DNA of 64,000 bases from Acrocarpospora phusangensis (GTDB taxonomy: Bacteria; Actinomycetota; Actinomycetes; Streptosporangiales; Streptosporangiaceae). The position numbers and the translations under genes are program-made. The stretch lies in contig NZ_BOOA01000031.1 in assembly GCF_016862995.1 (NCBI RefSeq), positions 1 to 64,000 of the forward strand, in the 5' to 3' direction. The notes beneath the pieces were generated by a model. That model searched no databases. It saw nothing but the letters and a program-made list of their open reading frames with translations, and was not told where the DNA came from. Positions 10,053-42,967 of this stretch are shown here, piece after piece (the stretch's first letter is position 1; every line of letters begins with the position of its first letter).

Positions 10053-10060
10053 ACGTCTAC

Positions 10061-10085
10061 GACGAATCGCGGACGCCGTTGGTTC
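10061..10085 (-). promoter_or_regulatory. candidate ECF-type promoter (GAACC-N16-CGTC on the minus strand) immediately upstream of the sigma-factor GTG start
   Basis: Reverse complement of 10061-10085 reads 'GAACCaacggcgtccgcgattCGTC'. The -10 element lies about 9 nt from the GTG start, which implies a leaderless or near-leaderless autoregulated transcript. Confidence 0.3.
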
Positions 10086-10123
10086 AGTGAATCTTCTGAC
10101 GATTTTTCACCGTATAACCGGGC

Positions 10124-11188: not shown

Positions 11189-11850
11189 AGATCATCGGGG
11201 CCGGCGTCGGCCGGACCGGGACGTTGTCGCTCAAATCCGCCCTGGAAGTGCTCGGGCTCGGCCCGTGCTTCCACGGCCGGCACGTGCTCGACCACCCCGA
11301 CCGGCTCGCCCTCTGGGAAGCCGCCGCCGAGGGCAGGCCGGTCGACTGGACGGCCGTCTTCGACGGCTACCGCGCCAGTGTGGACTGGCCGGGCGCCGCG
11401 TACTGGCGGGAGCTGCTCGCCGCCTTCCCCGACGCCAAGGTCATCCTCACCGTCCGCGAACCCCAGGGCTGGTACGACAGCGTCAACCGCACCATCTACC
11501 CCATGTTCGGCAGCGGCGCCGACCCCCGCGCCCAGCACGCCCTGCGCGTCGTGCCCGGACTCGACGTGTTCACCGCCTTCCACCGGCGGATGATCTGGGA
11601 CGGCTTCTTCGGCGGCAGGTTCGCCGACCGCGACCACGCCGTCGCCGTCTACGAGGAGCACAACGCGGCCGTGCTGCGGGAGGTGCCGGCCGAGCGGCTG
11701 CTGGTCATCCAGCCGGGGGACGGGTGGCAGCCGCTCTGCGACTTCCTCGGGCTGCCGGTGCCGGTGGAGCCGTACCCGCATCTGAACGATCCCGACCGGT
11801 TCTGGGGGCGGGTGGCGGCCCGGATGGCGGAAGCCACGCGGGAAGGATGA
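11185..11850 (+). CDS. sulfotransferase family protein (Stf0-like, PAPS-dependent)
   Basis: 221 aa. 5'-PSB P-loop 'GVGRTGTLSL'. ATGA overlap with the upstream oxidase gene. Confidence 0.75.
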   Translation: MKIIGAGVGRTGTLSLKSALEVLGLGPCFHGRHVLDHPDRLALWEAAAEGRPVDWTAVFDGYRASVDWPGAAYWRELLAAFPDAKVILTVREPQGWYDSVNRTIYPMFGSGADPRAQHALRVVPGLDVFTAFHRRMIWDGFFGGRFADRDHAVAVYEEHNAAVLREVPAERLLVIQPGDGWQPLCDFLGLPVPVEPYPHLNDPDRFWGRVAARMAEATREG

Positions 11851-13196: not shown

Positions 13197-13450
13197 ACGT
13201 ACGCGCGGCGGCCGATGTCGACGGCCGGGATGCGCTGGCCCTGGGTGAGGGCGGGGCTGCCGTACAGGTAGACGTCGCGGCGTTCGCCGCCGGCCGTGAA
13301 CGTGCCGTACCAGGAGCAGGCCTCGTGGCCGAGGTGGGAGACGCACCGGGAGTAGGTCGCGGTGAACGTGCCGGGCACCCCTTCGGCGCGGGCCGCGCGC
13401 AGCGCCGGGCCCATCGCCGGGACCGCCAGCACCAGCAGGAGCACCGCCGC
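13064..13450 (-). CDS. small membrane protein (N- and C-terminal TM segments); start approximate
   Basis: Only the C-terminal ~128 aa of ORF 13064..13993 look protein-like ('FTVAVSTTAAVLLLVLAVPAMGP...'). The upstream part is an alternative frame of the 13489..14022 gene. Confidence 0.35.
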   Translation of the reverse strand, partial: AAVLLLVLAVPAMGPALRAARAEGVPGTFTATYSRCVSHLGHEACSWYGTFTAGGERRDVYLYGSPALTQGQRIPAVDIGRRAYVYGPGGSNEWIVTSLMLVAGAGLLLPLAAKWRSHRRSRRASQTM

Positions 13451-13488
13451 CGTGGTGGACACGGCGACGGTGAACCCGGACGGCCCGC

Positions 13489-14022
13489 TCAAGCGGGCGC
13501 GCACGTGCAGGCGGCGTTCTCGGACTGCCTGCGGTGCAGGACCATGGCGACGATCATGGGGATGAAGACCAGGGTGTTGTAGAACAGGTGCAGCTCCACC
13601 CGGGGCACGATCAGCTGCGCGATGCTGGTGGGCACGGCCTTGCCGGCCAGGAAGAGGCCCGACTGCGCCTGGAAGAGCAGAAGCAGGTGCTCCAGGTGGT
13701 GCCAGACCTGGATGCCGAGCGAGATGTTCCACCACGTGCGAGCCGTTCCGGTGAACCCCTTGCGAAGCACGATCAGACCGACGAGCATGATCAACGCGTA
13801 CCCGTAGTGCAGCGCCTCGGACTTGACGACCCACGGGAAGAACTGCCCGAGAACGCCGCGCGATTCGGGGACCGGCCAGCCCAGACCCCAGATCTGGATG
13901 GCTTGGACGATGTGTTCGGCCCAGTGGGCGATGACGATGAACAGGAAGACATTGAGCGCTGTGCGGTGACCACCCGCGTTGAGCGACTGCCACCTACCTC
14001 CACGGATCGGGATCGCTGTCAT
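13489..14022 (-). CDS. integral membrane protein (about 4 TM), unknown family
   Basis: 177 aa with hydrophobic helices rich in W, H and F. Balanced composition. Confidence 0.6.
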   Translation of the reverse strand: MTAIPIRGGRWQSLNAGGHRTALNVFLFIVIAHWAEHIVQAIQIWGLGWPVPESRGVLGQFFPWVVKSEALHYGYALIMLVGLIVLRKGFTGTARTWWNISLGIQVWHHLEHLLLLFQAQSGLFLAGKAVPTSIAQLIVPRVELHLFYNTLVFIPMIVAMVLHRRQSENAACTCAPA

Positions 14023-14155
14023 CCAGGTCTCCTTGGTAATTGCCTACCTTCTCACCATGTTGTACGGGAAATCGGTGGCGGCGAGATTCCTCGACATGGT
14101 CTGAATCCCGTGACTTTCCCCCGCCGTACTACCGAATGACCCCAGGAGGAGATCG

Positions 14156-15613
14156 ATGTTCCCCGCCCCCGTTCTTGACGCGCTGCGGATGTCGCCGGAC
14201 CGTACCGCCATCGAGTACGGAGGGCGCGAGATCTCCTGCGGTGAGCTGCTCACCACCGTCGCGCGCATGGCCGCGGGACTGCGCGCCGCCGGGCTCGGCC
14301 GCGGCTGCGGCGTCGCCCTCATGACCGCCACCAACCCCGACGCGTACGCCGCCCACCTGGCCGCGCACGCCCTCGGCTGCCGGGTCGCCGCCTTCCGCCC
14401 GCGCTGGAGCGGCAAGCAGATCGCGCACGCCCTCGGCTACCAGTTCGACGCCCTCATCGTCGACCCCGGCGCTCGCCCCGGCGATCTGGACGTCCCCGTC
14501 CTCGACACCGCCACCCTGCGCGCCAACCCCGCAGGACCCCTCACCGCCGGCGCGCGCCCCGACGACATCGCCCGGCTGACCTTCACCAGCGGCAGCACCG
14601 GCCAGCCCAAGGGCTGCGCCCAGACCTACCGGGCCTTCAGCCTCGCCTACCAGCGCGACGACTGGCCGCCGCAGCTGGCCTCGCTCATGACGGCCTTCCA
14701 GCGCTGCCTCATCCACGAGAGTCTCGCCAGCCCCGTCATGATGACCTACCTCGGCCGCTGCCTCGTCGCCGGCGGCACCGTCGTCATGAGCAACGAGGAA
14801 CTCACCCCCGAGCTGCTGGAACGCCACCGCGTCACCGCCACCATGATGCCGCCGCCGCGCCTGCACGTCCTGCTCGCGACCCTGCACCAGCGCCCCGCCG
14901 ACCTCAGCGCCCTGCGCGCGGTCGTCCTCGGCGGCTCACCCGCCGACCCCGGCCTCCTCGCCGCCGCCATCGACCGCTTCGGCCCCATCGTCTGGCAGGG
15001 GTACGGCCAGGCCGAAGGCGGCGTCATCTCCATGCTCACCCCCACCGACATCGCCACCCACCCCGACGCCCTCACCACCGTCGGCCGCCCCCTCCCGACC
15101 GTCGAACTCAGCGTCCGCAACTACGAGGACCACGCCTCCGTACCCGGCCAGATCTGGGTACGCAGCCCGCACATGATGTCCCGCTACTGGAACGACCCCG
15201 ACCAGACCGCGGAGGTCCTCCAGGACGGCTGGCTCCACACCCGCGACATCGGCTACCTCGGCCCCGACGGCCTGCTCCGCCTGACCGGCCGCAGCCGCGA
15301 CGTCATCCTCGTCAACGCCGAGGTCTGCTACCCCACCGCCATCGAACGCGTCCTCGCCTCCCACCCCTCCGTCTCCGCCGCGTACGTCACCAGCACCCCC
15401 GATCCCGCCACCGGCGAAGCCGTACACGCCTTCGTCGTCCCCACCCCCGGCCACCCCATCGACAACGAAGCCCTCCTCTCCCTGGTCACCTCCTCCCTCA
15501 GCAAAGCCCACACCCCCAAAACCATCACCGTCCTCACCTCAGTCCCCACCACCCCCGCCGGCAAACCCGACAAACACGCCCTAACCACCCTCCTCCCCCT
15601 CCTCAACCCCTGA
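14156..15613 (+). CDS. AMP-dependent synthetase/ligase (acyl-CoA synthetase family)
   Basis: 485 aa. AMP-binding motif 'TFTSGSTGQPKG' and 'GYGQAEGG'. Confidence 0.85.
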   Translation: MFPAPVLDALRMSPDRTAIEYGGREISCGELLTTVARMAAGLRAAGLGRGCGVALMTATNPDAYAAHLAAHALGCRVAAFRPRWSGKQIAHALGYQFDALIVDPGARPGDLDVPVLDTATLRANPAGPLTAGARPDDIARLTFTSGSTGQPKGCAQTYRAFSLAYQRDDWPPQLASLMTAFQRCLIHESLASPVMMTYLGRCLVAGGTVVMSNEELTPELLERHRVTATMMPPPRLHVLLATLHQRPADLSALRAVVLGGSPADPGLLAAAIDRFGPIVWQGYGQAEGGVISMLTPTDIATHPDALTTVGRPLPTVELSVRNYEDHASVPGQIWVRSPHMMSRYWNDPDQTAEVLQDGWLHTRDIGYLGPDGLLRLTGRSRDVILVNAEVCYPTAIERVLASHPSVSAAYVTSTPDPATGEAVHAFVVPTPGHPIDNEALLSLVTSSLSKAHTPKTITVLTSVPTTPAGKPDKHALTTLLPLLNP

Positions 15614-25015: not shown

Positions 25016-26953
25016 TTAGCGGTCCGAGGGGCGGTAGCAGCAGCGGAGGCCGGTCTGGACCGTGGTGCGGAGTTCCTCGCCGATGATGGGGTCGGCCTCG
25101 GTGATGCGGGCCAGGGCCCGGCGGATGGCCTTGCCGACGGCGATCCTGGCGCGCTCCTCGCTGCCGGTGAACCGGCGGACCCGGCCGCTCATGCCGGTGG
25201 CGGCGGCCAGCTCGTCGACCAGCCAGTCGCGTTCGGCGCGCAGCGCCTCGGTGCGGCCGAGGTCGTGCTGCGACTCCAGCTCGTCGATCTCGGCCTGCAA
25301 CTGGGCCAGGCGCTGCTTGTACGTGCGCTTGGCCTGCTCGTCCAGGAGCGGCTGCCCGGTGTCGGTCTCGCCCTCCGTCATGCCGGGCCCGGCGGCCAGG
25401 TCGGTGGCGCGGATCTCACTGCCGGGGTTGGAGATGAGGGTGGCCAGGTGGCGCATGCCGACGCTGTGGTCGACCAGCACGCTGCGGCCGCTGAGCTCGA
25501 TCAGCCAGTGGCGGCCGTGGCGGCGGCACTTGCCGGCGTCCTTGGACTTGACCGGGGTGCGCGCCTCCGGAGCGGCCGGCAGCAGCATGCCGAGCTCGTC
25601 CGCCTCCTCCTGCGCCTGCGCGAGCTCCCGGTTGGCGGCCTCGTCGTTCGGGCCGCCGCGCCGGGCGAGCGCCTGCCCGAGCCGCCACCGCGACAGCACC
25701 GCGGCCGGCCAGTGCCCGAGCGCCAGATTGTCCTGTACGGCCCCGCGCAGATGCTCCACCGCCCGGTCCACGTCGCCGACCGTGAGGCTGGCCATGCCGA
25801 GCGTGTGCCGGGTGGAGCCGAAGCAGGAGACGCCCAGACTCACGATCATGGGCAGCCGGGCGAACGGGGTGAGCAGGTGGTACGCCTGGGCCGCGGTCTC
25901 GGCGTCGTCGAGCAGGTGGGCGGCTTCCACGATGCCGTACATGGTGGTGAGCCAGCTGCTGGAGCGGGGCAGGTCGCCGAGGTCGCGGCCGCGCAGGCGC
26001 GCCACCATGCCGGCGGCGAGCCGTTTGTCGCCGTTGCTGGCGGCGGCGACGGCGAGGGCGGCGAAGTAGGAGTTGTCGACGGCGCTCAGCATCGGCGAGT
26101 TGACCATCTCCATCAGCACCGGGACGAGTTCGGCGATCCGGCCCTGGTACCAGCGGATGGTGCCGAGCTGGCCGCCGTACCAGCCGGTGGTGTCGACGTC
26201 GCCGGCGGTGGCGCCGCGCTCGGCGGCGACGTTGGCGAGGGTCTCGGCGTGGCCGAAGCGGCCGGTCCTGATGGCGAGCATGACGTCGATGGCGCTGACC
26301 ACGAAGCCGACGGCGCGGTGGTCGTGCAGGTCCAGCCGGCCGCGCAGCTCCTCCAGGGCGCGCTCGGCGTGCGGGTCGGCGGCCAGGAAGCGGTCCACGG
26401 TCTGCCAGAGCAGGCCCATGAGCAGGTCGCCGCGGCGGCCGGTGCTCCCGGCGTGGGCGACGAGCTCTTCGGCCAGGTCGGCGCGGAGCATGCCGTGCTC
26501 GGGGGCGAGCAGGCAGTGGTGGGCCAGGCTGAGGGCTTCGGCGAGGGCCTGCGCGTCGCCGGCCCTGCGGGCCTCCGCGACGACCTTGATGATGGCGGCG
26601 TGCTCACCGTTGCGGTAGTCCTCCTCGCCGGTGAGCCGGGCCCGCAGGCGGAGGGCGAGGGTGGAGCGCGGGTCGATGCCGGACAGGGCGTGCCGCTGGC
26701 GCATCCGGACCAGGCCGGCGTCGACGGTGGTGCGGTGCTCGTGCACCCAGACCCCGCCGAGCCCGAGCGCGGCCCGTGCCATCGCGATGGAGTTGTCCTC
26801 CCCCTGCGCCATCCGGTACGCGTCGTCGAACCACCGTCTGGCCGCCTGCAGGTCCCCGTCCACGTAGAGCGCGCGTTCGCCGGCGACGAGCGTGAATTCG
26901 ATGCCGTCGCCGAAGTCGGCTGATAAGGTCTCCAGCCCTTGTACCAAGCTCAC
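25016..26953 (-). CDS. hypothetical helical-repeat (TPR-like) protein, 645 aa
   Basis: Balanced, Ala/Leu-rich composition. The antisense ORF 24959..26923 is Gly/Ala/Val junk. Confidence 0.55.
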   Translation of the reverse strand: MSLVQGLETLSADFGDGIEFTLVAGERALYVDGDLQAARRWFDDAYRMAQGEDNSIAMARAALGLGGVWVHEHRTTVDAGLVRMRQRHALSGIDPRSTLALRLRARLTGEEDYRNGEHAAIIKVVAEARRAGDAQALAEALSLAHHCLLAPEHGMLRADLAEELVAHAGSTGRRGDLLMGLLWQTVDRFLAADPHAERALEELRGRLDLHDHRAVGFVVSAIDVMLAIRTGRFGHAETLANVAAERGATAGDVDTTGWYGGQLGTIRWYQGRIAELVPVLMEMVNSPMLSAVDNSYFAALAVAAASNGDKRLAAGMVARLRGRDLGDLPRSSSWLTTMYGIVEAAHLLDDAETAAQAYHLLTPFARLPMIVSLGVSCFGSTRHTLGMASLTVGDVDRAVEHLRGAVQDNLALGHWPAAVLSRWRLGQALARRGGPNDEAANRELAQAQEEADELGMLLPAAPEARTPVKSKDAGKCRRHGRHWLIELSGRSVLVDHSVGMRHLATLISNPGSEIRATDLAAGPGMTEGETDTGQPLLDEQAKRTYKQRLAQLQAEIDELESQHDLGRTEALRAERDWLVDELAAATGMSGRVRRFTGSEERARIAVGKAIRRALARITEADPIIGEELRTTVQTGLRCCYRPSDR

Positions 26954-30338: not shown

Positions 30339-30365
30339 GGAACCCGTGTAAGTAGATTTCACGTT
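30339..30365 (+). promoter_or_regulatory. candidate ECF-sigma-type promoter (GGAAC-N18-CGTT) about 40 nt upstream of the NfeD-like/flotillin operon
   Basis: Direct reading: 'GGAACccgtgtaagtagatttcaCGTT' in the AT-richer 150-bp intergenic region before 30404. Confidence 0.35.
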
Positions 30366-30403: not shown

Positions 30404-30946
30404 ATGAGCGACTTGGTGGAAACGGCGCTGGAGTTTCCCGCCGTCCTGTTCACGTTCGCGCTGCTGGTCGTGCTGGTGTTCTGGGTGCTCGTGGTGACCG
30501 GGCTGGCCGATCTGGACGACGGCGAATTGCTGAGCATTCCGATGGCCGCGGCGGTCTCGTTTTTCGTGGCCGTGGCCTGGTTCGTCACGCTCGCCGGAAC
30601 ACATCTCTTCACTGGTGGCCCGGCCCGGGTCGCCGTGCTCGCCGTCGCGCTGGCCGGGGGCTGGCTCAGCGCGCGCCTGCTGCTGTCCGCCGTGCGCAAG
30701 GCGCTGCCCGCGGTCCGGGCGCCGTCCCGTACGGACTTCGTCGGCCGCCTCTGCGTGCTCCGCACCAGCACGGTGACCCGGGATTTCGGCCAAGCCGAAG
30801 TGCACGCCGAGGACGGCTCCTCCGCGGTGATCCAGGTCCGGCAGACCGGCACCGACACCTTCCGCGCGGGCGGCACCGCGCTGATCTTCGACTATGACGC
30901 GGAAGGCGAGTTCTTCTGGGTCATGCCCTACGAGGGGGAACTCTGA
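30404..30946 (+). CDS. NfeD-like / YqiJ-family membrane protein (TM helices plus C-terminal OB-fold)
   Basis: Three N-terminal TM helices. C-terminal beta-rich segment typical of NfeD OB domains. Stop TGA immediately abuts the flotillin ATG. Confidence 0.7.
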   Translation: MSDLVETALEFPAVLFTFALLVVLVFWVLVVTGLADLDDGELLSIPMAAAVSFFVAVAWFVTLAGTHLFTGGPARVAVLAVALAGGWLSARLLLSAVRKALPAVRAPSRTDFVGRLCVLRTSTVTRDFGQAEVHAEDGSSAVIQVRQTGTDTFRAGGTALIFDYDAEGEFFWVMPYEGEL

Positions 30947-33031
30947 ATGGACGTCATCTCCGCCGGGTTCGGCATCTTAGTCGCCGTCATCCTGCTGATC
31001 GTGATCGGTCTGGTGTTCATCATCAGCCGCCTGTTCCGCAAGGTGGAGCAGGGTAAGGCGCTGATCGTCTCCAAGGTGCGCCGGGTGGACGTGACGTTCA
31101 CGGGCGCGGTCGTGCTGCCCGTGGTGCACAAGGCCGAGGTGATGGACATCTCGGTCAAGACCATCGAGATCGAGCGGTCCGGCAACGAGGGGCTGATCTG
31201 CCGGGACAACATCAGGGCCGACATCCGGATCACCTTCTTCGTCCGGGTCAACAAGACCGCGGAGGACGTGGTGAAGGTGGCCCAGGCCATCGGCACCGCC
31301 AGGGCCAGCGACGAGGGCACCCTGCAGACGCTGTTCAACGCCAAGTTCTCCGAGGCGCTCAAGACGGTCGGCAAGCACCTGGACTTCGTCGACCTGTACA
31401 CCAAGCGGGACGAGTTCCGGGACCAGATCCTGCGCGTCATCGGCACCGACCTCAATGGGTACAGCCTGGAGGACGCGGCCATCGACTACCTGGAGCAGAC
31501 GCCGCTGGCCAAGCTGGACCCGGCCAACATCCTGGACGCCCAGGGCATCCGCAAGATCACCGAGTTGACCGCCATCGAGCACGTGCGCACCAACGAGTTC
31601 CAGCGCAACGAGGAGAAGGAGATCACCCGGCAGAACGTGGACGCCCGGGAGGCCATCCTGGAGCTGGAGCGCCGCCAGGCCGACGCGGAGACCAAGCAGA
31701 AGCGCGAGGTCGAGACCATGCAGGCGCGCGAGGAGGCGGAGACCGCCAAGGTGCGCGCCGAGGAGCGCCTCAAGGCCGAGGCCGCGGCGGTGCGGACGGA
31801 CGAGCAGCTGGGCATCCAGCGGCAGAACCGGGACCGGGAGATCGCCGTCGCGCAGAAGAACCGCGAGCGGGTCATCGCCATCGAGACCGAGCGCATCGAG
31901 AAGGACCGCCTGCTCGAGGTGATCGCCAGGGAGCGGGAGACCGAACTCTCCACGATCGCCAAGGACAAGGAGATCGAGGTCGAGAGGCGGGCCATCGCCG
32001 AGGTGACGCGGGAGCGCATCGCGGTCGACAAGACGGTGGCCGAGCAGGAGGAGCACATCAAGCGGCTGCGCGTGGTGGAGGAGGCCGAGCGCACCCGCCA
32101 GGCCGTCATCATCGGCGCCGAGGCCGAGGCCCAGGAGAACCTGGTCAAGGACATCAAGGCGGCCGAGGCCGCCGAGCAGGCCGCCAAGTTCCGGGCCCGC
32201 GAGGAACTGGTGCTGGCCGAGGCCCGGCAGCAGGCGGCCGAGCTGGACGCCCGCGCCAAGATCCGGCTGGCCGAGGGCGTGCAGGCCGAAGCGGCCGCGG
32301 CCGGCCTGGCCGAGGTGCAGGTCAAGGAGCGGGACGCGGCCGCCATCGAGAAGGTGGGCCGGGCCCAGGCCGCCGTCGAGCGGGAGAAGGCCCTGGCGAG
32401 CGCGGAGGGCACCCGGGAGCGGCTGAAGGCCGAGGCGGACGGCGAGCAGGCCAAGGCCCTGTCCGCCGCCATGATGGTGGGCGAGAAGCTGAAGGCCGAG
32501 GCGGAGGGCCTGACCGAGAAGGCCGCCGCGATCGCCGCGATGACCGACGCGGGCCGGGGCCACGAGGAGTACCGGCTGCGCCTTGAGGCCGAGAAGGAGA
32601 TCCGGCTGGCCGGGGTCAAGGCGCATCGCGAGGTCGCCGAGGCGCAGGCCGCCGTGCTCTCCGCGGGGCTCCAGCAGGCCAGCATCGACATCGTCGGCGG
32701 CGACTCGGTGTTCCTGGACAAGCTGGTCGGCTCGGTCGCGCTGGGCAAGAGCGTGGACGGGTTCCTGGACAGCTCCGAGGCGGCGCGGTCGATCGCGGCG
32801 CCGTACCTGAACGGGACGGGGAGCCTGGCCGACGACCTGGCGAAGATCGTCAATGGGGTGGACAGCGCGGACGTGCGGAACCTGACGCTGTCGGCGTTCC
32901 TGCTGCGGCTGATCCAGACCGGTGGCGCGGACACCGACAAGCTGCGTGAGCTGCTGACCACCGCGCAGCGGCTCGGCGTGGCCGAGGCCCCCATGGCCAC
33001 GGTCGCCGCGCTCGACCCGGCCAAGTCGTGA
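30947..33031 (+). CDS. flotillin-family SPFH/Band-7 protein (YqiK/FloT-like)
   Basis: N-terminal TM. SPFH domain ('ALIVSKVRRVDVTFTGAVVLPVVHKAEVMDISVKTIEIE'). About 400 aa of Glu/Ala/Arg-rich coiled coil. Flotillin C-terminal region. Confidence 0.85.
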   Translation: MDVISAGFGILVAVILLIVIGLVFIISRLFRKVEQGKALIVSKVRRVDVTFTGAVVLPVVHKAEVMDISVKTIEIERSGNEGLICRDNIRADIRITFFVRVNKTAEDVVKVAQAIGTARASDEGTLQTLFNAKFSEALKTVGKHLDFVDLYTKRDEFRDQILRVIGTDLNGYSLEDAAIDYLEQTPLAKLDPANILDAQGIRKITELTAIEHVRTNEFQRNEEKEITRQNVDAREAILELERRQADAETKQKREVETMQAREEAETAKVRAEERLKAEAAAVRTDEQLGIQRQNRDREIAVAQKNRERVIAIETERIEKDRLLEVIARERETELSTIAKDKEIEVERRAIAEVTRERIAVDKTVAEQEEHIKRLRVVEEAERTRQAVIIGAEAEAQENLVKDIKAAEAAEQAAKFRAREELVLAEARQQAAELDARAKIRLAEGVQAEAAAAGLAEVQVKERDAAAIEKVGRAQAAVEREKALASAEGTRERLKAEADGEQAKALSAAMMVGEKLKAEAEGLTEKAAAIAAMTDAGRGHEEYRLRLEAEKEIRLAGVKAHREVAEAQAAVLSAGLQQASIDIVGGDSVFLDKLVGSVALGKSVDGFLDSSEAARSIAAPYLNGTGSLADDLAKIVNGVDSADVRNLTLSAFLLRLIQTGGADTDKLRELLTTAQRLGVAEAPMATVAALDPAKS

Positions 33032-36000
33032 CCGCCGATGTCGAGAAGGCCGATGTCGAGAAGGCCGATGTCGTGACGGCCGGTCTGGACGCGGGCACGT
33101 ACGAGATCCTGCGGGCCCGGCTGGCCGGGCAGGCCGGCGAGCTGGCCGCCGCGGCGGAGCAGCTCAACCAGCGGCGGCTCGGCGTGTTCGGCAGCTCCGA
33201 GCTGCGGCTGATCGGGACCGAGCGGATCAGGACCGAGAACAACTGCGTGCCCAGGGACATCGTCTCGGCCGGGGACACGATGGTGTTCGGCTACAACGTG
33301 TTCATCGGGCTGAAGCCGCAGACCGCGGTGGCGGACGTCTTCGCCTTCCACCGGTTCTCCCGGGACGGGGACGCCTTCCGGTTCGACGACGCGCCCAGCC
33401 TGTTCACCGACCCGCAGTTCGAGCGGGACTTCGGCGAGCTGTACCGGTACTACAAGGAGACGCGCCTGCTGCAGCTGCGCCGGGTGGAAGGGCGGCTGCT
33501 GGCGGTCTTCCAGACCGGGCCGCAGGACATCCGGGTGCTGCGCTGGGCGGTCGGCAACGACGGCGGGCTCACCTACCTGGACAACCGGGGCGAGCGCGAC
33601 CACGTGTTCCCGCCCGCGCACGACTTCGAGTGGGTGGAGACCACCCGGGACGACCACGTGCTGGGACGGCATCCGCACATCTCGATCGGGGGCGAGGTGT
33701 TCGTCGAGACGGTCGGCGGCGACCTCACCATCAAGGTCGAGAACAACACGGAGACGGGGGAGGGCGTCTACCGGGAGCCGGTGGCGGAGCCGCTGCAGAG
33801 CCTGGCCGACGCGGACGTCTGGCACGCGCGGGTGGGGCCGCTGATCCTGCTGAAGATCAGGCCGTACAAGGAGACCGAGTGGCGGTACCTGGTGTTCAAC
33901 ACCAGGACCAGGGAGGTCGTACGGCTGGACGGCATCGGGCAGGCGTGCCGGCGGCTGCCGGAGGACCAGGGGATCATCTTCCCGGGCGGCTACTACCTGA
34001 CGACCGGCGTCGTGAAGACCTTCGAGACCGACGTGGCCAGCCTGGAGTACGAGCGGGTCATCCGGGCCGAGGAGGACGTGCTCTACGTCTTCCACGCCCG
34101 GGAGGAGGGGCGCTCGCTGCTGCTGCCGTACAACGTGATCCGCAAGGAGGTGGCGACGCCGATCTCCTGCCACGGCTACTCGCTGTTCGACGACGGCACG
34201 CTCGTGGTGTTCAAGGCGGTGTCGGACGAGCCGACCCGGGTGCATCCGATGCAGGTGTGGCAGACGCCGTACCAGACGGAGACGGCGGCGCCGACCGGGA
34301 CCGGGCCGCTGGAGCGGATCGGCAACGGGGAGCTGGTCCGGGGCATCTCGGACTGCCTGTCGATCACCCGGATGGTGCGGGAGATGTCGCCGGCCGCGCC
34401 GGTCTTCGAGGCGCTGATCGCGGCCTGCGAGCGGGCCTTCGACGCCTACCACTGGCTGGGCGAGCACGGGCTGCGGGAGCCGCTGACCGCGCTGCGGGCC
34501 ACCGCCGAGCAGGTGCTCGACGAGTTCGAGAACGTGCAGGAGATGACCGCGCAGGCCGTGCTCGCGCTGGACGAGGCGGCGGCGCGGATCAAGGCCGTCG
34601 ACGGGGACGGGGTGACCCGGCTGGCCGAGCTGCGGCGGGCGCAGGGGCACCTGGTGACGCTGCGGGAGCGGCGGCACATGGACCTGGCCCGGCTGGACGG
34701 CATGGCGGCGGGCCTAGCCGAGGAGCTGGCCGCGACCGCCGGGCGGGTGGTCGGGCAACTGCGGGACGCGGACGCGTTCACCGGCTACCACGACGAGGTG
34801 AACCGGCTGGCCGCCGACGCGGAGGCGATCACCACCGTGGCCGGGGCGGGACCGGTCACCGACCGGCTCGACCGGCAGGCGACCGGCCTGGAGACCCTCG
34901 TCGAGGTCGTCGGCACGCTCGACGTCGACGCCACCGCGCGCACCGCCATCCTGGAGCACGTCGGATCGGTGCTGGCCGGGATCAACCGGGCCAGGGCCAC
35001 CCTGGACGCGCGCCGCCGCGAACTGCTGGGCAGCGAGGGACGCGCGGCCTTCGCCGCCGAGTTCGCGCTGCTCGGACAGGCCGTCGCCGCCGCGCTCGCC
35101 GGGTCCGGCACGCCGGAGCGCTGCGACGAGCAACTCGGGCGGCTGCTGCTCCAGCTGGAAGGGCTGGAGTCGCGGTTCACCGACTTCGACGACTTCCTCG
35201 CCCAGCTGGAACGCAAACGGGAGGACGTCTACGAGGCGTTCTCGGCGCGCAAGCAGACCCTGCTGGACGAGCGGGCGCGCCGGGCCGACCGCCTGGTGGA
35301 GTCCGCGGACCGCATCCTCGGCAGCGTACGGCGTCGCTCGGCCGCCCTGGCAAGCCTCGACGAGGTCAACACCTACTTCGCCACCGACCCGATGGTGGGC
35401 AAACTGCGCGGGGTCGCCGAGGAGCTGCGCGAACTCGGCGACCAGGTGCGGGCCGAGGAGCTGGACGGCCGGGTACGGGCCGCCCGCCAGGAGGCCGGGC
35501 GCAGCCTCCGCGACCGCCTCGACCTGTTCGACGGCGACGCCGTACGGCTGGGCAGGCACCGGTTCGCCGTCAACACCCAGCCCGCGGACCTGACCCTGGT
35601 GCCGCACGAGGGCGGCCTGGCCTTCGCCATCACCGGCACCGACTACCGCTCGCCCGTCGCCGACCCGGCCTTCGCGGACACCCGGCCGTTCTGGAACCAG
35701 CTCCTGATCTCCGAGACCGCCGAGGTCTACCGCGCGGAGCACCTGGCCACCGCCGTGCTCGCGGCCGGGAACCCGCCCGAGGGCGACCTGCTGGCGCACG
35801 TACGGCGGGCCGCCGAGGAACGTTTCGACGAGGGCTACGAGCGGGGCGTGCACGACCACGACGCCGCCGCGATCCTGGACGTGCTCCGCCACCTGCACGC
35901 GGGCGCCGGCCTGCTGCGCTACCCCGCGCCGGCCCGCGCCGCCGCCCAGTTCTTCTGGGCCTTCGGCACGGACGAGCCCGCCCGCGCCCGCTGGACGACA

Positions 36001-37806
36001 CGGGCGCGCTCGCTCGCGCGGGCCCGGGAGCTGTTCGGCGGGACGGCGGCGGCCATCGCGGAGCTGCGCGGCGAACTGGCCGAGGCCGTCACCGCCTTCG
36101 CGGGCGAACACGGGCTCACGGCCGACCAGGACGCGGCCGAGTATCTCGTCGAGGAACTGGCCGACCACGCCGACGGGTTCGTGACCAGCGCCGAAGTCCG
36201 CTCATTCCTGGACAGATTCCGCGGCTCACTCGGACCGGAACGGGCGGCGGCGCTCACCGGGGAACTGGGCACGCTCGACCTGTGGGCCCGCCACCAGCTC
36301 GCCCTGGCCTGGCTGACCGCCTACGCGACGACCGCCGGCGGGACGGACCTGCTGCCGGAGGCGGTCGCGGTGCTCCTGTGCGACCTGCCCCGGCAGGAGT
36401 CGTCGGCGGCGCTGACCGGCACGGCCGACGGGCTGCTCGGCGCGCACCCCCGCATCGACGGGCGGCGGCTGGAGATTCGGCTGGACGAGATCCTGGCGCG
36501 CACCCGGCGGTTCCGCGACGAGCGCATGCCCGCCTACCGCGACTACCAGCGCCGGCGGGGCGAACTCGTCGAGGCGGAGCGGCTGCGGCTGCGGCTGGCG
36601 GAGTTCCGGCCGAACGTGATGAACGCCTTCGTACGCAACCGGCTGCTGGACGAGGTCTACCTGCCGCTGATCGGCGACAACCTGGCCAAGCAGCTGGGGG
36701 ACGGGAACCGCGTCGACCAGATGGGCATGCTGCTGCTCATCTCGCCGCCCGGCTACGGCAAGACCACCCTGATGGAGTACGTGGCCGGCCGCCTCGGGCT
36801 GGTCTTCGTCAAGGTCAACGGCCCGGCGCTCGGTCACACGGTGACCTCCGTGGACCCGGCCGAGGCGCCCAGCGCGACCGCGCGGCAGGAGATCGAGAAG
36901 ATCTCGTTCGCGCTGGAGTGCGGCAACAACGTGCTGCTCTACCTGGACGACATCCAGCACACCTCGCCGGAGCTGCTGCAGAAGTTCATCTCGCTGTGCG
37001 ACGCGCAGCGCCGGATGGAGGGCGTCTGGAACGGGCGCGCCCGGACGTACGACCTGCGCGGCAAACGCTTCGCGGTGTGCATGGCGGGCAATCCGTACAC
37101 CGAGTCGGGGCAGCGGTTCCGCATCCCCGACATGCTGGCCAACCGGGCCGACGTCTGGAACCTCGGCGAGGTCCTGTCCGGCAGGGACGAGCTGTTCGCG
37201 CTCAGCTACATCGAGAACGCGCTGACCTCCAACGACGTGCTGGCCCCCGGCGCCGACCGCGGCGACATCGCCCAGCTCGTACGGCTCGCGCGCGGCGAGG
37301 GCAACGCCGACCAGCTCGACCATCCGTACGGGGCGGCCGAGCTGGAGCAGGTGCTGGGCGTGCTGCGGAACCTGCTGCGCGTGCAGGAGGTGGTGCTGGC
37401 GGTGAACCGCGCCTACATCGCGTCGGCTGCGCAGGCGGACGCCAGCCGTACCGAGCCGCCGTTCCTGCTGCAGGGCTCGTACCGGAACATGAACAAGCTC
37501 GCCCAGCGGGTGGTGCCGGTGATGAACGAGACCGAGCTCAACGCCATGATCGACGATCACTACCTGGGGGAGGCGCAGACGCTCACCTCGGGCGCGGAGG
37601 CCAACCTGCTGAAGCTGGCCGAGCTGCGCGGCACGCTTGGCCCGGCCCAGAGTGCCCGGTGGGCGGAGGTCAAGGCCGGCTACCTCAGGGAGCGCGCCCT
37701 CGGCGGGGACGGCGACGACCCGATGAGCCGGGCGGTGGGCGCGATCGGCCTGCTCGCCGACCGCGTCTCCGGCATCGAGAAGGCCCTCACCAGAGGCGAG
37801 ACCTAG
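33028..37806 (+). CDS. giant (1592 aa) multidomain protein with C-terminal AAA+ (AAA_5/MoxR-like) ATPase; function unknown
   Basis: GTGA overlap with the flotillin stop. N-terminal ~450 aa beta-rich domain(s). A long helical middle. Walker A 'ISPPGYGKTT' and Walker B-like 'VLLYLDDIQH' near aa 1240-1310. Sensor-1 'CMAGNP'. The alternative frame 33630..38000 is Gly/Arg junk. Confidence 0.8.
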   Translation: MTADVEKADVEKADVVTAGLDAGTYEILRARLAGQAGELAAAAEQLNQRRLGVFGSSELRLIGTERIRTENNCVPRDIVSAGDTMVFGYNVFIGLKPQTAVADVFAFHRFSRDGDAFRFDDAPSLFTDPQFERDFGELYRYYKETRLLQLRRVEGRLLAVFQTGPQDIRVLRWAVGNDGGLTYLDNRGERDHVFPPAHDFEWVETTRDDHVLGRHPHISIGGEVFVETVGGDLTIKVENNTETGEGVYREPVAEPLQSLADADVWHARVGPLILLKIRPYKETEWRYLVFNTRTREVVRLDGIGQACRRLPEDQGIIFPGGYYLTTGVVKTFETDVASLEYERVIRAEEDVLYVFHAREEGRSLLLPYNVIRKEVATPISCHGYSLFDDGTLVVFKAVSDEPTRVHPMQVWQTPYQTETAAPTGTGPLERIGNGELVRGISDCLSITRMVREMSPAAPVFEALIAACERAFDAYHWLGEHGLREPLTALRATAEQVLDEFENVQEMTAQAVLALDEAAARIKAVDGDGVTRLAELRRAQGHLVTLRERRHMDLARLDGMAAGLAEELAATAGRVVGQLRDADAFTGYHDEVNRLAADAEAITTVAGAGPVTDRLDRQATGLETLVEVVGTLDVDATARTAILEHVGSVLAGINRARATLDARRRELLGSEGRAAFAAEFALLGQAVAAALAGSGTPERCDEQLGRLLLQLEGLESRFTDFDDFLAQLERKREDVYEAFSARKQTLLDERARRADRLVESADRILGSVRRRSAALASLDEVNTYFATDPMVGKLRGVAEELRELGDQVRAEELDGRVRAARQEAGRSLRDRLDLFDGDAVRLGRHRFAVNTQPADLTLVPHEGGLAFAITGTDYRSPVADPAFADTRPFWNQLLISETAEVYRAEHLATAVLAAGNPPEGDLLAHVRRAAEERFDEGYERGVHDHDAAAILDVLRHLHAGAGLLRYPAPARAAAQFFWAFGTDEPARARWTTRARSLARARELFGGTAAAIAELRGELAEAVTAFAGEHGLTADQDAAEYLVEELADHADGFVTSAEVRSFLDRFRGSLGPERAAALTGELGTLDLWARHQLALAWLTAYATTAGGTDLLPEAVAVLLCDLPRQESSAALTGTADGLLGAHPRIDGRRLEIRLDEILARTRRFRDERMPAYRDYQRRRGELVEAERLRLRLAEFRPNVMNAFVRNRLLDEVYLPLIGDNLAKQLGDGNRVDQMGMLLLISPPGYGKTTLMEYVAGRLGLVFVKVNGPALGHTVTSVDPAEAPSATARQEIEKISFALECGNNVLLYLDDIQHTSPELLQKFISLCDAQRRMEGVWNGRARTYDLRGKRFAVCMAGNPYTESGQRFRIPDMLANRADVWNLGEVLSGRDELFALSYIENALTSNDVLAPGADRGDIAQLVRLARGEGNADQLDHPYGAAELEQVLGVLRNLLRVQEVVLAVNRAYIASAAQADASRTEPPFLLQGSYRNMNKLAQRVVPVMNETELNAMIDDHYLGEAQTLTSGAEANLLKLAELRGTLGPAQSARWAEVKAGYLRERALGGDGDDPMSRAVGAIGLLADRVSGIEKALTRGET

Positions 37807-38669
37807 AGGGCGGCGCGGTAGACGTCCCCGACGAGCTTGGTGATCTTCTTCGTGGCGTCGGCCCAGGGGGTGGTCTGGGTCGTCAGCAGGACCATGATGT
37901 AGCGGTCGCCGAGCACGCCGGTGGTGTGCAGGACCGGGTGCACGAAGTCCACGTCGGCCGACGCGGCGCGGGCGCGTACGCACGTGGAGGGCGGCACTGA
38001 GCCGTACCCGGACCAGCCCTGCTTGACCGCCCAGGGCTTGGGCACGGCCCGGGGAATGCCGAAGAACTGGTCGAAGCCGTCGCTGCCGCACTGGCCGGCC
38101 TTGCGCAGCTGAGTCATGATCGTGTCGCGGACCTTGGGCTCGGCCTTCTCCAGCAGGTAGCGGTAGACCTTGGCGATGTCGAGCGCGCTGATGGCGGTGT
38201 AACCCCAGAAGCCCGGTTTGTCGGCGGGCGGCGGGCCGGTGTCGGTCAGGCCGAGGCGCTTGGACATCCGCAGAATGATCTTGCCTTGGCCGCCGCGCCG
38301 CCACAGGGCGGTGGCCGCGTTGTCGTCGCTGACGCGCAGCATCGGCTGGAGCAGTGCCAGGTCGGGCTTGGCGACGTCCTCAAGGTGGTCGATGGCGATC
38401 AGCAGCTTGACGACCGAGGCGGACCGGAAACGTTTGTGCACGTTCCGGAAGACGGTCACCTTGCGGGCCTGGCGGTCGAAGACGACGTAGCCCGCCGTCA
38501 CTCCCTTGGGCACGAGCACGGGCTTGCGCGCGGTCCGGGTGGGGGAGGGCGTGGCCTCGGAGACGAACGAGGCCGCCTTCGACACCGGGACTTCCGCCTC
38601 CGGCGCGCAGCCGGCGACGGCGGGAGCGGCGAGAAGAAGGGCAACGGAGGCCACCATGGTCGGGCGCAC
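37803..38669 (-). CDS. class A beta-lactamase-like serine hydrolase lipoprotein
   Basis: Lipobox 'VAGCAP'. SxxK 'SASVVK', SDN 'VSDDN' and KTG-like 'KQGWSG' motifs. Confidence 0.65.
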   Translation of the reverse strand: MRPTMVASVALLLAAPAVAGCAPEAEVPVSKAASFVSEATPSPTRTARKPVLVPKGVTAGYVVFDRQARKVTVFRNVHKRFRSASVVKLLIAIDHLEDVAKPDLALLQPMLRVSDDNAATALWRRGGQGKIILRMSKRLGLTDTGPPPADKPGFWGYTAISALDIAKVYRYLLEKAEPKVRDTIMTQLRKAGQCGSDGFDQFFGIPRAVPKPWAVKQGWSGYGSVPPSTCVRARAASADVDFVHPVLHTTGVLGDRYIMVLLTTQTTPWADATKKITKLVGDVYRAAL

Positions 38670-40459: not shown

Positions 40460-41374
40460 TCAGCTGTCCCACAGGTCGGGCACCCGGCTGCTGAGCTTCT
40501 CGGCCGCGGACCACAGTTCCAGCAGCCAGGGCACGGCCTCCCCGGTGCCCGCCACCAGCGAGCGGTCCTCCGTGAGCGTGCCCACCCGCGGGTCGAAGGC
40601 GCGCCCGGAGGGGTCGGTGACCCGCAGGCCCGCCTCGGTGGCGATCAGCGCGCCCGCGTGCAGGTCCAGCTCGCCGATCTCGTAGCCGACGATGCCGTCC
40701 AGGTCGCCCCTGGCCAGCATGACCCAGCTCAGCAGCGGCGCCCACAGCCGCAGCACCCGGGTGGACTCCCGGTCGAGCACCAGCCGCAGCGCGGTCGCGG
40801 TCGGGTCCTCCGGCGTGACCCGGTAGCCCTGGTTCCACGCCAGCGTCGGGCGGCTGCGCGGGGGCCGCTCCCGCCGGACGAGCGGGCGGTCCCGGCCCGC
40901 GAACGCGCCCTGGTGGCGCACGGCCGACCAGGTGTGCCCGGAGCCCGGCTCGTGCACCGCCGCCACGACCGGCAGGCCGCGCAGGCAGAGCGTGATCCCC
41001 ACCGTGTAGACGTTGAGGCCCATCGCGATGTTGTTGGTCCCGTCCAGCGGGTCGACCAGCCAGTTCCACCGCACGTCGCCGCTGAGCGTGCCCGCCTCCT
41101 CCGAGACGATCTGGTGGTGCGGGTAGCGGGCCCTGATCCGGTCCACGATCAGCCGCTCGGCGGCCAGGTCCAGCTCGGTGACCAGGTCGCCCTCGCTCTT
41201 CGCCCAGACGTCGAAGTGCCGGTCGGACCGGCCGCGCAGCAGGCTCCCGGCGCTCTCGGCCGCGTCGATCGCCACATACCGGGCCTGTTGAAGGTCAACC
41301 GTCTCCCGCCGCATCCCTGAAGCCCTTCTCGCCGGGATCACCGGTCCAGTCCCAAGACTTTCGCCGCGATGCAC
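40460..41374 (-). CDS. inositol monophosphatase family protein
   Basis: 'WLVDPLDGTNN' IMPase motif. Confidence 0.8.
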   Translation of the reverse strand: MHRGESLGTGPVIPARRASGMRRETVDLQQARYVAIDAAESAGSLLRGRSDRHFDVWAKSEGDLVTELDLAAERLIVDRIRARYPHHQIVSEEAGTLSGDVRWNWLVDPLDGTNNIAMGLNVYTVGITLCLRGLPVVAAVHEPGSGHTWSAVRHQGAFAGRDRPLVRRERPPRSRPTLAWNQGYRVTPEDPTATALRLVLDRESTRVLRLWAPLLSWVMLARGDLDGIVGYEIGELDLHAGALIATEAGLRVTDPSGRAFDPRVGTLTEDRSLVAGTGEAVPWLLELWSAAEKLSSRVPDLWDS

Positions 41375-41931
41375 AGTTCGTCGTGTCCCCCGGGATGCCT
41401 GATCACGTCATGTGAGGGCGCCGCTACGTCTCCCAGACTAAGTTCCTGGTTCTCGCGATGGTTGTCGGCCATCACAAGTGTGGCGGTCGCGCCAAGGGCG
41501 GCGGTGGCGTGGAAGCGGCCCGCCGCGAGGCCGTAGAACTGGCCGGCGCCGAAGTGCTCGGAGGCGACCGTGGTCTGCCGGACCAGCCGGGAGGTGCGCC
41601 GCAGCCGGTCCCCCGCCGAGCCGGGCCGGATGGTGAAGACCCGGTGGGTGGGCGCGGTGTCGTCCGGCACCACGTCGATCAGGTCGTTGCGGAGCGTCCC
41701 GGTGAGCACGTAGCTGGTCAGGCCCCAGCTGTGGGCGTGCACCGGGGAGGTGGTGGGCGCGTCGAACACCAGGTCGTCCGACCAGACGTGCAGGCAGAGG
41801 CCGAACCTCGGGCCGCGGTGCATGGGCACGCACAGGAAGCCGAGCGGGTGCCGGACCGTGACGGGGCTCGATCTGAGCAGGTCGTGCGCGGCGGCCAGGA
41901 ACGCGCCGTCGGGGGAGGCGGCCAGCAGCAT
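41338..41931 (-). CDS. hypothetical protein (possibly cupin-like); start approximate
   Basis: Protein-like composition from 'MLLAASPDGAF...'. Paired His motifs 'HVW...HAHSW'. The upstream 55 codons of the listed ORF are Arg/Ser/Pro junk. Confidence 0.45.
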   Translation of the reverse strand: MLLAASPDGAFLAAAHDLLRSSPVTVRHPLGFLCVPMHRGPRFGLCLHVWSDDLVFDAPTTSPVHAHSWGLTSYVLTGTLRNDLIDVVPDDTAPTHRVFTIRPGSAGDRLRRTSRLVRQTTVASEHFGAGQFYGLAAGRFHATAALGATATLVMADNHRENQELSLGDVAAPSHDVIRHPGGHDELCIAAKVLGLDR

Positions 41932-41983
41932 GCGCCGCAGGCCCGCCGCGTGTTCGCCGGCCTGGTGCGGCCCGCCGGTCCGC

Positions 41984-42967
41984 TCAGGAGTACGGGTTCT
42001 TCGGCCGGATCGCCTTGGCGACGATCTGCGGTATGAGGTCATGGGAAACCACCAAGGGGACGTCGAGTGCGTCGAAGAGCCGGAGGACCTCATCGACGGT
42101 CGGCTCGGCGCTGAGCGCGATTCCGTCTGCTTTATCGAGATGGACCGGCCTGGCCTGATCGAGACTGGTCCGCAGTTCGGTTTCGTACGAGGCGTAGAGG
42201 AAACTCTGCCGGGGCACGACCATGGCGGGCCCGTCGTCCTGGGTGATCACCAATCTGTCGTCGGACATATCACACCGGAAGATTCCCATGGTGGTGGCCA
42301 GGCCGATCCGCACGTCCAGCAGGCTGTACATGGCCTGGTACCAGCAGGCCGCGAAAATCGTGGCGTACGACTCCAGCTGGGTGCGCTCGGTCGTCCATAT
42401 TTCGCCGGTTCCGTCCGGGAGTTCCGAGACTGAGCGGCGAAAACGGGCGTACCGATCGCACACGGTTAAGTCGGTGGGGTCCAGGATTTCCAGGCGGACG
42501 TTGAGCGGGCGGCGTTCCAGACGGGCGCGGCGAATCAGCTCCGGCAGGGTCACGGCGCGGATGTACGTTCCGGTGCCGCCGCGGAACAGCCACCGCCCGG
42601 TGTTCTCCCGCGCCCGGGCGAGTTCCTCGGCCACCGACTCCCGACGTGACCTGATCTGGGCCAGCGACTGCTCGCCGAGCGCCACCGTGGCCTGCGCGAG
42701 CACCGTGTTGGCGCGGGCCATCTCGGCGGCCACGCCGTCCATGCCGCGCAGCGTCTCGACGATCTCCTCGGTCATCTCGGCCCGCCGCCAGCGGTCCCGC
42801 AGAATCGACAGGGAAAGCACGCCCAATGTGACCAGAACGGCATTTCCGGTCACTGCTTCCGACGCGACGGACGTGATACCCAGGATGCCCACCACGACCG
42901 CGATGCCCAGAGCCAGTACGGCGTCCGCCTCGTTGGCGAGCCTGCCGAGTATTCGCAGCAACGTCAC
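41984..42967 (-). CDS. membrane-anchored hypothetical protein (2 TM, then a coiled coil, then an unknown C-terminal domain)
   Basis: 327 aa, balanced composition, N-terminal TM helices. Confidence 0.55.
   Translation of the reverse strand: MTLLRILGRLANEADAVLALGIAVVVGILGITSVASEAVTGNAVLVTLGVLSLSILRDRWRRAEMTEEIVETLRGMDGVAAEMARANTVLAQATVALGEQSLAQIRSRRESVAEELARARENTGRWLFRGGTGTYIRAVTLPELIRRARLERRPLNVRLEILDPTDLTVCDRYARFRRSVSELPDGTGEIWTTERTQLESYATIFAACWYQAMYSLLDVRIGLATTMGIFRCDMSDDRLVITQDDGPAMVVPRQSFLYASYETELRTSLDQARPVHLDKADGIALSAEPTVDEVLRLFDALDVPLVVSHDLIPQIVAKAIRPKNPYS

Follow-up and report, generated by a model that had tools for sequence, protein, structure and literature searches.

The window analyzed here is a stretch of 64,000 nucleotides (nt) from Acrocarpospora phusangensis (contig NZ_BOOA01000031.1, positions 1 to 64,000; 70% GC), in which three adjacent genes at positions 30404 to 37806 encode a YqiJ-like membrane protein, a YqiK-type flotillin, and a giant AAA+ ATPase. 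The locus is the "abbreviated", PspA-less form of an operon that has already been described by Ravi et al. 2024 (mSystems, PMC11237479), and its flotillin–ATPase pair is co-inherited across at least six phyla. We consider it reasonably likely that the locus represents the short form of a conserved membrane-stress or membrane-remodeling operon, in which the ATPase remodels assemblies of flotillin or PspA. The original prediction for this DNA had regarded the three genes as one co-expressed machine and as a candidate for an undescribed system. What stands of that view is a conserved, membrane-linked, and experimentally uncharacterized unit; the system itself is not undescribed, since Ravi et al. 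report the operon including its abbreviated form, and the coupling of the genes does not hold as a general argument. The genes are as follows.

30404-30946, + strand: gene 1, predicted YqiJ/DUF1449-type (short NfeD-like) membrane protein of 180 amino acids (aa)
30947-33031, + strand: gene 2, YqiK-type flotillin of 694 aa
33028-37806, + strand: gene 3, soluble multidomain AAA+ ATPase of 1592 aa from GTG 33028 or 1577 aa from GTG 33073

The three open reading frames (ORFs) have a GC content at third codon positions (GC3) of 0.90–0.98, which is typical of genuine genes, and their products are 100% identical to Aph01nite_39690, Aph01nite_39700, and Aph01nite_39710. The ORFs, the TGA|ATG abutment of genes 1 and 2 at 30946/30947, and the overlap sequence GTGA at the junction of genes 2 and 3 (33028-33031) are all present as originally described. 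The module is bordered on its upstream side by a divergent gene for an NAD kinase and on its downstream side by a convergent gene for a beta-lactamase-like protein, and therefore comprises exactly three genes.

Conservation of the flotillin–ATPase pair

A scan of one genome per species located the ATPase in at least 584 species-level genomes of at least six phyla, and synteny was studied in the best 80 of these (at least 584) species-level loci together with L001. A flotillin orthologue lies immediately 5' of the ATPase gene in 77 of 77 genome loci having upstream DNA, a set that includes Myxococcus, Corallococcus, Acidobacteriota, and metagenome-assembled genomes labeled Clostridia and Deltaproteobacteria. 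Among eleven distant loci, whose ATPases share only 26–44% identity, the flotillin is kept in ten (L082, L084–L087, and L089–L093). Taxa with the pair include Actinomycetota, Myxococcota, Acidobacteriota, Bacteroidota, and Gammaproteobacteria, and the synteny, which might have been peculiar to this genome, extends far beyond it. Across loci, the identities of the flotillin and of the ATPase co-vary (r = 0.94), which argues for one functional unit. The module is also found in tractable hosts, namely Streptomyces, Myxococcus, Vibrio campbellii, Proteus mirabilis, and the Pseudomonas fluorescens megaplasmid pQBR103.

The first gene is conserved less strictly than the pair. A small ORF with at least two transmembrane (TM) segments precedes the flotillin gene directly in 66 of the 80 loci, and the YqiJ-like gene is absent from about 14 Streptomyces loci, which makes it optional. 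In 30 Streptomyces loci (L031–L078), the pair is adjoined by a gene for a PucR/CdaR-like regulator of about 365 aa that is mostly divergent and just upstream (for example, L048, 4371-5477, − strand; L076, 4580-5659, − strand); about 14 of the Streptomyces loci with this regulator have no YqiJ-like gene, and the regulator is missing from the window. Since flanking genes are not kept beyond the genus level, the three-gene module appears, from its gene order, to be an autonomous unit.

The close packing of the genes had been taken as evidence of stoichiometric co-expression. This packing is lineage-specific: the ATPase gene is tightly coupled to the flotillin gene only in relatives of the window organism, whereas in Streptomyces, Myxococcus, Vibrio, and Bacteroidota the two are separated by gaps of 40–420 nt, and the ATPase gene has its own ribosome-binding site. 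Together with the Streptomyces loci that dispense with the YqiJ-like gene, these gaps mean that translational coupling does not generalize as evidence of stoichiometry.

A membrane-anchored defense system, which was also entertained at the outset, would involve a flotillin complex that senses the perturbation of the membrane by a phage and an ATPase that triggers a protective or suicidal response. Large multidomain ATPases are indeed common among defense systems, the flanks of the module vary between genera, copies are carried by megaplasmids such as pQBR103, and the Vibrio locus L082 has genes for a Dam-type methyltransferase and a ClpX-like ATPase nearby; PspA, moreover, was first found as a phage-induced protein. 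However, no match to the module was found among 50,697 phage records, and a set of 72,556 plasmid records yielded only 13, several of them multi-megabase records as large as chromosomes. The genes that flank the module in the window are housekeeping genes, among which no defense island was found. The higher identities among the best 80 loci fall within the query's own phylum, and this, along with the divergent regulator kept in 30 Streptomyces loci, suggests stable chromosomal inheritance rather than the turnover of defense islands. At the protein level, PADLOC-DB v2 yielded no meaningful match: for the ATPase, it returned only chance-level P-loop fragments (IetA and mad8; E about 4e-3, 30 residues), and for genes 1 and 2 it returned nothing. 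No nuclease, protease, TIR, SIR2, or pore-forming effector domain was recognized by Pfam or in the structural model of the ATPase, and a literature search combining SPFH proteins with anti-phage systems retrieved nothing that links such a module to defense. An anti-phage or abortive-infection function is, on these grounds, very improbable.

Full-length members of the family with 39–45% identity occur in Proteus mirabilis, Halomonas, Vibrio campbellii, and Photobacterium, in records of the plasmid collection that measure 1.7–4.1 Mb.

The YqiJ-like protein and the flotillin

The labels NfeD/YqiJ-like, flotillin, and AAA+ that were originally attached to the three proteins hold up when homology and fold are tested, although genes 1 and 2 gave no match in direct scans with Pfam, NCBIfam, and PADLOC, even at E = 10. 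Gene 1 contains three hydrophobic segments, in agreement with the three TM helices of its AlphaFold2 (AF2) model, which has a predicted local distance difference test score (pLDDT) of 88 and consists of helices at residues 12-31, 45-68, and 72-100 followed by five strands at 116-175. The C-terminal beta domain formed by these strands is predicted with a pLDDT of about 94. Its second-ranked Foldseek match is the NfeD C-terminal domain 1510-C (PDB 3wwv; prob 1.0, template modeling score 0.75 on the target), which sits among generic OB folds and, like every other match, has an E-value of at least 5e-3.

A profile of actinobacterial gene 1 homologues did not match E. coli YqiJ significantly when the two were aligned directly (hhalign; prob 4%, E 0.0095), and an intermediate profile from distant loci was therefore needed. 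The gene 1 profile matches that of the small proteins of the distant loci (prob 99.8, E 8.5e-28), and the latter in turn matches YqiJ (prob 94.3, E 1e-7); sub-threshold YqiJ_N matches are also seen in L084 and L087. In UniRef and PGAP, gene 1 homologues are named DUF1449 or OB-fold-containing protein. Gene 1 is thus modeled as a protein of the YqiJ/DUF1449 type, in which three TM helices precede a cytoplasmic, NfeD-like OB domain at the C terminus.

The assignment of gene 2 is more direct. The profile of its homologues, which are named "flotillin family protein/YqiK", aligns with E. coli YqiK over 417 columns (hhalign; prob 99.6, E 3e-24), across the TM segment, the SPFH domain, and the coiled coil. 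Of 25 close homologues, 6 match Band_7 (best E 2.6e-8), as do the orthologues from Vibrio, L089, and L091. A profile of flotillin homologues found nothing among PDB sequences, probably owing to the composition of the coiled coil. The only hydrophobic segment of the protein, at residues 1-34, is its N-terminal TM anchor, and the SPFH domain is followed by a long coiled coil rich in Glu, Ala, and Arg that can be aligned with that of YqiK up to residue 460. A C-terminal extension of about 70–90 aa has no counterpart in E. coli YqiK. Gene 2 is accordingly a YqiK-type flotillin, whose SPFH domain, coiled coil, and family-specific C-terminal tail are cytoplasmic.

The first two genes resemble the E. 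coli yqiJK and B. subtilis yuaFG(floT) pairs, in which the gene directly 5' of that for a flotillin with an N-terminal anchor, an SPFH domain, and a coiled coil likewise encodes a small multi-TM protein whose C-terminal part is an OB domain. The relationship to YqiK is strong, and that to YqiJ can be traced with the help of the intermediate profile. The differences lie in the flotillin of the window, which is about 140 aa longer than YqiK, ends in a distinct tail, and shares only about 25% identity with it; in the dispensability of the YqiJ-like gene in some Streptomyces loci of the present module; and in the ATPase gene, which does not follow yqiK in E. coli K-12.

Architecture of the ATPase

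The combination of a giant ATPase with such a pair had been considered unassignable to any characterized system; the product of gene 3 belongs to the curated Pfam families DUF3686 (PF12458; E 3e-210, 698.7 bits against a cut-off of 25) and DUF7902 (PF25472; E 4.5e-28, 97.7 bits against a cut-off of 26) and carries a PGAP name, "DNA repair ATPase". A C-terminal P-loop match to AAA/AAA_5 scores 28 bits. The protein has a mass of ~175 kDa and no credible TM segment. It has more than 7000 homologues, and a search with the N-terminal 1175 aa retrieved 1344 cluster representatives at 50% identity (435 at E < 1e-30), nearly all of them 1500–1900 aa long. An AF2 model was available for residues 16-1190 (window 33073-36597; pLDDT 87), whereas the AAA+ module was read from the sequence. 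The domains and motifs are as follows.

33139-34452, + strand: N-terminal helix and predicted seven-bladed beta-propeller (DUF3686, residues 38-475; AF2 pLDDT about 90, Foldseek)
34306-36591, + strand: predicted middle region of long antiparallel helices or coiled coil with two small beta inserts and a second helical domain (AF2 pLDDT 66-96)
34771-35022, + strand: DUF7902 (residues 582-665; Pfam), inside the middle helical region
36730-37803, + strand: AAA+ module with conserved C-terminal lid (alignment of orthologues)
36742-36768, + strand: Walker A, SPPGYGKTT (alignment)
36946-36951, + strand: Walker B, LYLDDIQH, with invariant Asp-Asp (alignment)
within 36730-37803, + strand: further AAA+ motifs, namely sensor-1 MAGNPYTE, the Arg in PDMLANRAD, and GSYRNMNK (alignment)

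Structure prediction for the N-terminal part, as suggested originally, revealed a beta-propeller of about 28 strands within model residues 45-397, i.e., about 350 residues, which Foldseek matches to WD40 and prolyl-oligopeptidase propellers (prob 0.99-1.0). It is followed by a first helical stretch of about 400 residues (412-818), strands at 823-861, helices at 887-1102, strands at 1107-1136, and a helix at 1137-1173. The longest Foldseek alignments of the whole model are with nucleoporins, clathrin heavy chain, IFT-A, and Vps11, at template modeling scores of about 0.1; the likeness of the model to such eukaryotic membrane-coat or tether proteins, built of a beta-propeller and an alpha-solenoid, would be one of architecture only.

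In an alignment of 19 orthologues from six phyla, the AAA+ motifs are invariant or nearly so, and an Asp-Asp Walker B replaces the usual Asp-Glu. When profiles were searched against the PDB, only the Walker A region (35-70 residues) matched, in Rix7/NVL, p97, midasin, and RuvB. The sequence LYLDDIQH resembles the Walker B motif of DnaA, which reads IDDIQF. By analogy, the Asp-Asp Walker B may point to an ATPase that hydrolyzes slowly, in the manner of a switch, and not to a fast unfoldase. The gene 3 product is thus a soluble ATPase that combines a seven-bladed beta-propeller and a long helical array with a single AAA+ module, the nucleotide-binding motifs of which are intact.

The names given to the family point in another direction, that of a DNA-repair ATPase encoded by chance beside membrane genes. 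Pfam describes PF12458 as "ATPase involved in DNA repair", and the window ATPase is a full-length, high-scoring member of the DUF3686 and DUF7902 families and of the PGAP family "DNA repair ATPase". The names aside, a weak, sub-threshold similarity to the P-loop of RuvB and the position of the flotillin-less copy of Aureibacter (L083), about 5 kb from ada/alkA-like genes, could be adduced. The RuvB matches, however, are limited to about 45 residues surrounding Walker A, and their scores of 16-18 bits fall below the cut-offs of 282-299. Neither the confident 1175-residue model nor Pfam reveals a DNA-binding, nuclease, or helicase domain, the obligate partners of the ATPase are two membrane proteins, and no repair genes are conserved nearby. 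DUF3686 and DUF7902 are families of unknown function, and the repair label is supported neither by gene context nor by the literature searched. A function in DNA repair is therefore extremely unlikely, and the name "DNA repair ATPase" is probably a legacy annotation that is wrong.

Relation to PspA and the published operon

In the operon of Ravi et al. 2024 (PMC11237479), which is presented as part of the bacterial membrane-stress or phage-shock-protein repertoire, a CesT/Tir-PspA dyad is joined with three further genes, including one for a 3TM YqiJ/YuaF protein, and "abbreviated operons" that contain the latter genes alone are noted to have a wider distribution; a chaperone-like function in building complexes linked to membranes is proposed there. 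The window locus agrees with this operon in its three proteins, in their order on one strand (YqiJ/YuaF-like, Band-7/flotillin, ATPase), and in their domain architectures, and the same gene order is found in L084, L090, and L093. The ATPase architecture described by Ravi et al., i.e., beta-propeller, coiled coil, and AAA+ module, is present in the window ATPase (AF2 propeller; Foldseek prob 1.0). Two of the distant loci, L084 and L093, match the full operon and contain a DUF3686 ATPase orthologous to that of the window, and the ATPase family is therefore the same. In contrast to the full operon, the window has neither the CesT/Tir-PspA dyad nor the phospholipase D gene. The published account is purely computational and about one paragraph long, and it does not mention the Pfam families or offer any mechanism by which the ATPase would act.

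Outside Actinomycetota, the module frequently shares a cluster with PspA and a CesT/Tir chaperone. PspA is encoded in a cluster with the module at 5 of the 11 distant loci (L084, L090, L091, L092 on pQBR103, and L093 on a Hymenobacter plasmid). Its companions comprise a CesT/Tir chaperone (L084, L093), DUF2170 (L091), and a yjfJKLMC-like polyamine set (pQBR103). On pQBR103, a 425-kb megaplasmid of Pseudomonas fluorescens SBW25 (L092, record 85112-97641), the module lies downstream of a PspA cluster ordered PspA, rhomboid, DUF2491, DUF350, DUF1190, and glutathionylspermidine-synthase-like, and a MvaT/MvaU gene comes after it. TelA (PF05816), of the toxic anion resistance family, is encoded near the module in the Vibrio locus L082 (15502-16608, − strand) and in the metagenomic contig L086 (15001-16221, + strand), where it lies directly 3' of the module on the same strand.

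Proposed function and related AAA+ systems

A membrane-associated role in stress or remodeling, which was among the initial suggestions, is the best reading of these data. In the mechanism that we propose, the flotillin would oligomerize into a membrane-attached SPFH cage or scaffold, by analogy with the solved flotillin and HflK/C complexes, and the OB domain of the YqiJ-like protein would bind this scaffold, as in the NfeD–stomatin and YuaF–FloT pairs. The ATPase may dock on the cytoplasmic face through its beta-propeller or helical arm, plausibly on the C-terminal tail of the flotillin at the apex of the cage. Through ATP binding and hydrolysis and nucleotide-dependent oligomerization, it might then assemble, open, disassemble, or recycle the flotillin scaffold under envelope stress; where PspA is co-encoded, it may act on the ESCRT-III-like polymers of PspA too.

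Several observations weigh against this role. In Actinomycetota, the link to the phage-shock-protein system is indirect, as PspA, CesT, and TelA are absent there: PspA, CesT, TelA, and ClpX-like genes were not found near the actinobacterial loci, and neither the window nor any of the 80 best loci contains the first three. Aureibacter tunicatorum (L083; ATPase at 10001-14830) has neither a flotillin nor a YqiJ-like neighbor and is the sole exception among the loci examined. Placement of the ATPase in the classical AAA clade (Vps4, p97, katanin, FtsH) failed, given that only the Walker A region aligns and that Walker B reads DD instead of DE. Lastly, literature searches on DUF3686, DUF7902, and "DNA repair ATPase" together with flotillin retrieved nothing relevant, and the literature searched yielded no experimental work on the module.

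Regarding the Aureibacter locus, the gene upstream of the ATPase encodes a protein with a PRiA4_ORF3 domain, and the ada/alkA-like genes lie about 5 kb away. A literature search combining Streptomyces and flotillin returned only a paper on an unrelated stomatin-like protein.

HflK/C-FtsH offers a precedent for a different emphasis, namely membrane-protein quality control, in which a flotillin cage corrals damaged or unfolded membrane proteins and the ATPase extracts them, unfolds them, or hands them to proteases. Like the present module, HflK/C-FtsH unites a scaffold of the SPFH family and an AAA+ ATPase at the cytoplasmic membrane, and it is tied to stress adaptation. Papers that include PMC11222466 and PMC13220708 treat an SPFH cage around an AAA+ machine as established for HflK/C-FtsH and report that flotillin stabilizes unfolded proteins. 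A beta-propeller is also a typical platform for binding substrates or adaptors, and a rhomboid protease gene lies in or beside the cluster on pQBR103 and in L087. FtsH, however, belongs to the classical clade and is an AAA+ metalloprotease anchored in the membrane and enclosed by a periplasm-facing cage, whereas the window ATPase is soluble and contains, instead of a protease domain, a beta-propeller, a helical arm of ~700 residues, and a divergent AAA+ core. The ATPase would be a protease-less analogue, with no TM anchor of its own, and no protease is conserved in the module; its DD Walker B and the lack of similarity to the pore-loop regions of unfoldases are not suggestive of a processive translocase. 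We regard quality control, the main rival of scaffold remodeling, as unlikely, although the two overlap, and computation cannot separate an action on clients from an action on the scaffold.

A second comparison is provided by Vps4/CdvC acting on ESCRT-III, where an AAA+ ATPase is likewise genomically coupled to membrane-remodeling polymers; PspA, an ESCRT-III homologue, is a frequent neighbor of the module. According to a 2025 review, bacterial PspA seems to lack a Vps4-like ATPase, and the roles of the Band-7 partners are undetermined. In contrast to Vps4/CdvC, no MIT domain was found in the window ATPase, its membership of the classical AAA proteins is not demonstrable, and its constant partner is flotillin rather than PspA. 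We tentatively suggest, as a possibility that is still more doubtful than not, that the DUF3686 ATPase could be a dedicated, ATP-driven assembly and disassembly factor for flotillin cages and co-encoded PspA/ESCRT-III polymers, i.e., a functional counterpart of Vps4.

Translation start, upstream region, and flanking genes

Two further features of the locus concern the start of gene 3 and the region upstream of gene 1.

33034-33082, + strand: in-frame tandem repeat with a 15-nt unit, GCCGATGTCGAGAAG, in 3.3 copies (Tandem Repeats Finder score 84), encoding (ADVEK)n
30339-30365, + strand: weak candidate promoter of extracytoplasmic function (ECF) sigma type, GGAAC-N18-CGTT, 39 nt upstream of gene 1

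The GenBank ATPase Aph01nite_39710 has 1577 aa and hence starts at GTG 33073, leaving a gap of 41 nt after the flotillin gene. An AAGG/GAGAAGG Shine-Dalgarno motif precedes this codon by 8 nt; no such motif accompanies GTG 33028. The 45 nt separating the two candidate starts correspond to the 15-nt tandem repeat, from which the GAGAAGG motif is derived. Herbidospora orthologues do not have the repeat insert, and their overlapping GTG aligns with GTG 33073 of the window. In the nearest relatives, namely Herbidospora, Streptosporangium, Amycolatopsis, and Actinokineospora, a GTG overlapping the flotillin stop codon is the sole possible start of the ATPase. For A. phusangensis, the overlapping start at GTG 33028 is plausible but not proven on this comparison, and the operon is tight with either start.

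Upstream of gene 1, a scan for sigma-70 promoters found none. Terminator-like matches occurred at chance level. The motif GGAAC-N18-CGTT is found at the same position in two Herbidospora loci (L002 and L003), with a common TAGATTyCACGTT core. The pattern is present in 7 of 67 upstream regions, where shuffled sequences give 2.0 +/- 1.3, and is thus modestly enriched. The Nonomuraea and Streptosporangium loci have a different conserved element, GGGAAC...CTTTATCTGTATATAGTC (GGGAAC...TATAGTC). The ECF-like motif is accordingly kept as a candidate promoter element.

On the downstream side, the stop codon of the ATPase (TAG, 37804-37806) overlaps by two bases that of the convergent beta-lactamase-like gene (37803-38669, − strand), and no terminator-like structure was found between the two genes. 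The housekeeping genes in the wider flanks comprise an acetate-permease pair, a spherulin-like protein, and an inositol monophosphatase. The NAD kinase gene was rejected as a conserved neighbor because it is common only to Herbidospora, as local synteny, despite a weak NAD_kinase gene near L091. Elsewhere in the window, the ORFs at 25016-26953 (− strand, 645 aa) and 41338-42093 (− strand, 251 aa) show strong coding-type GC3 and have no Pfam match at E <= 1e-3.

Implications

The instance in the window adds membership only to a kind of operon that is known computationally and whose function is experimentally uncharacterized. For genome annotation, the probably erroneous name "DNA repair ATPase" matters, since it spreads into new genomes. 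For the biology of these membranes, no energy-consuming partner is known that would assemble, remodel, or recycle either flotillin scaffolds or PspA polymers. A giant AAA+ protein that is encoded nearly always beside flotillin, and often beside PspA, is an obvious candidate for such a partner.

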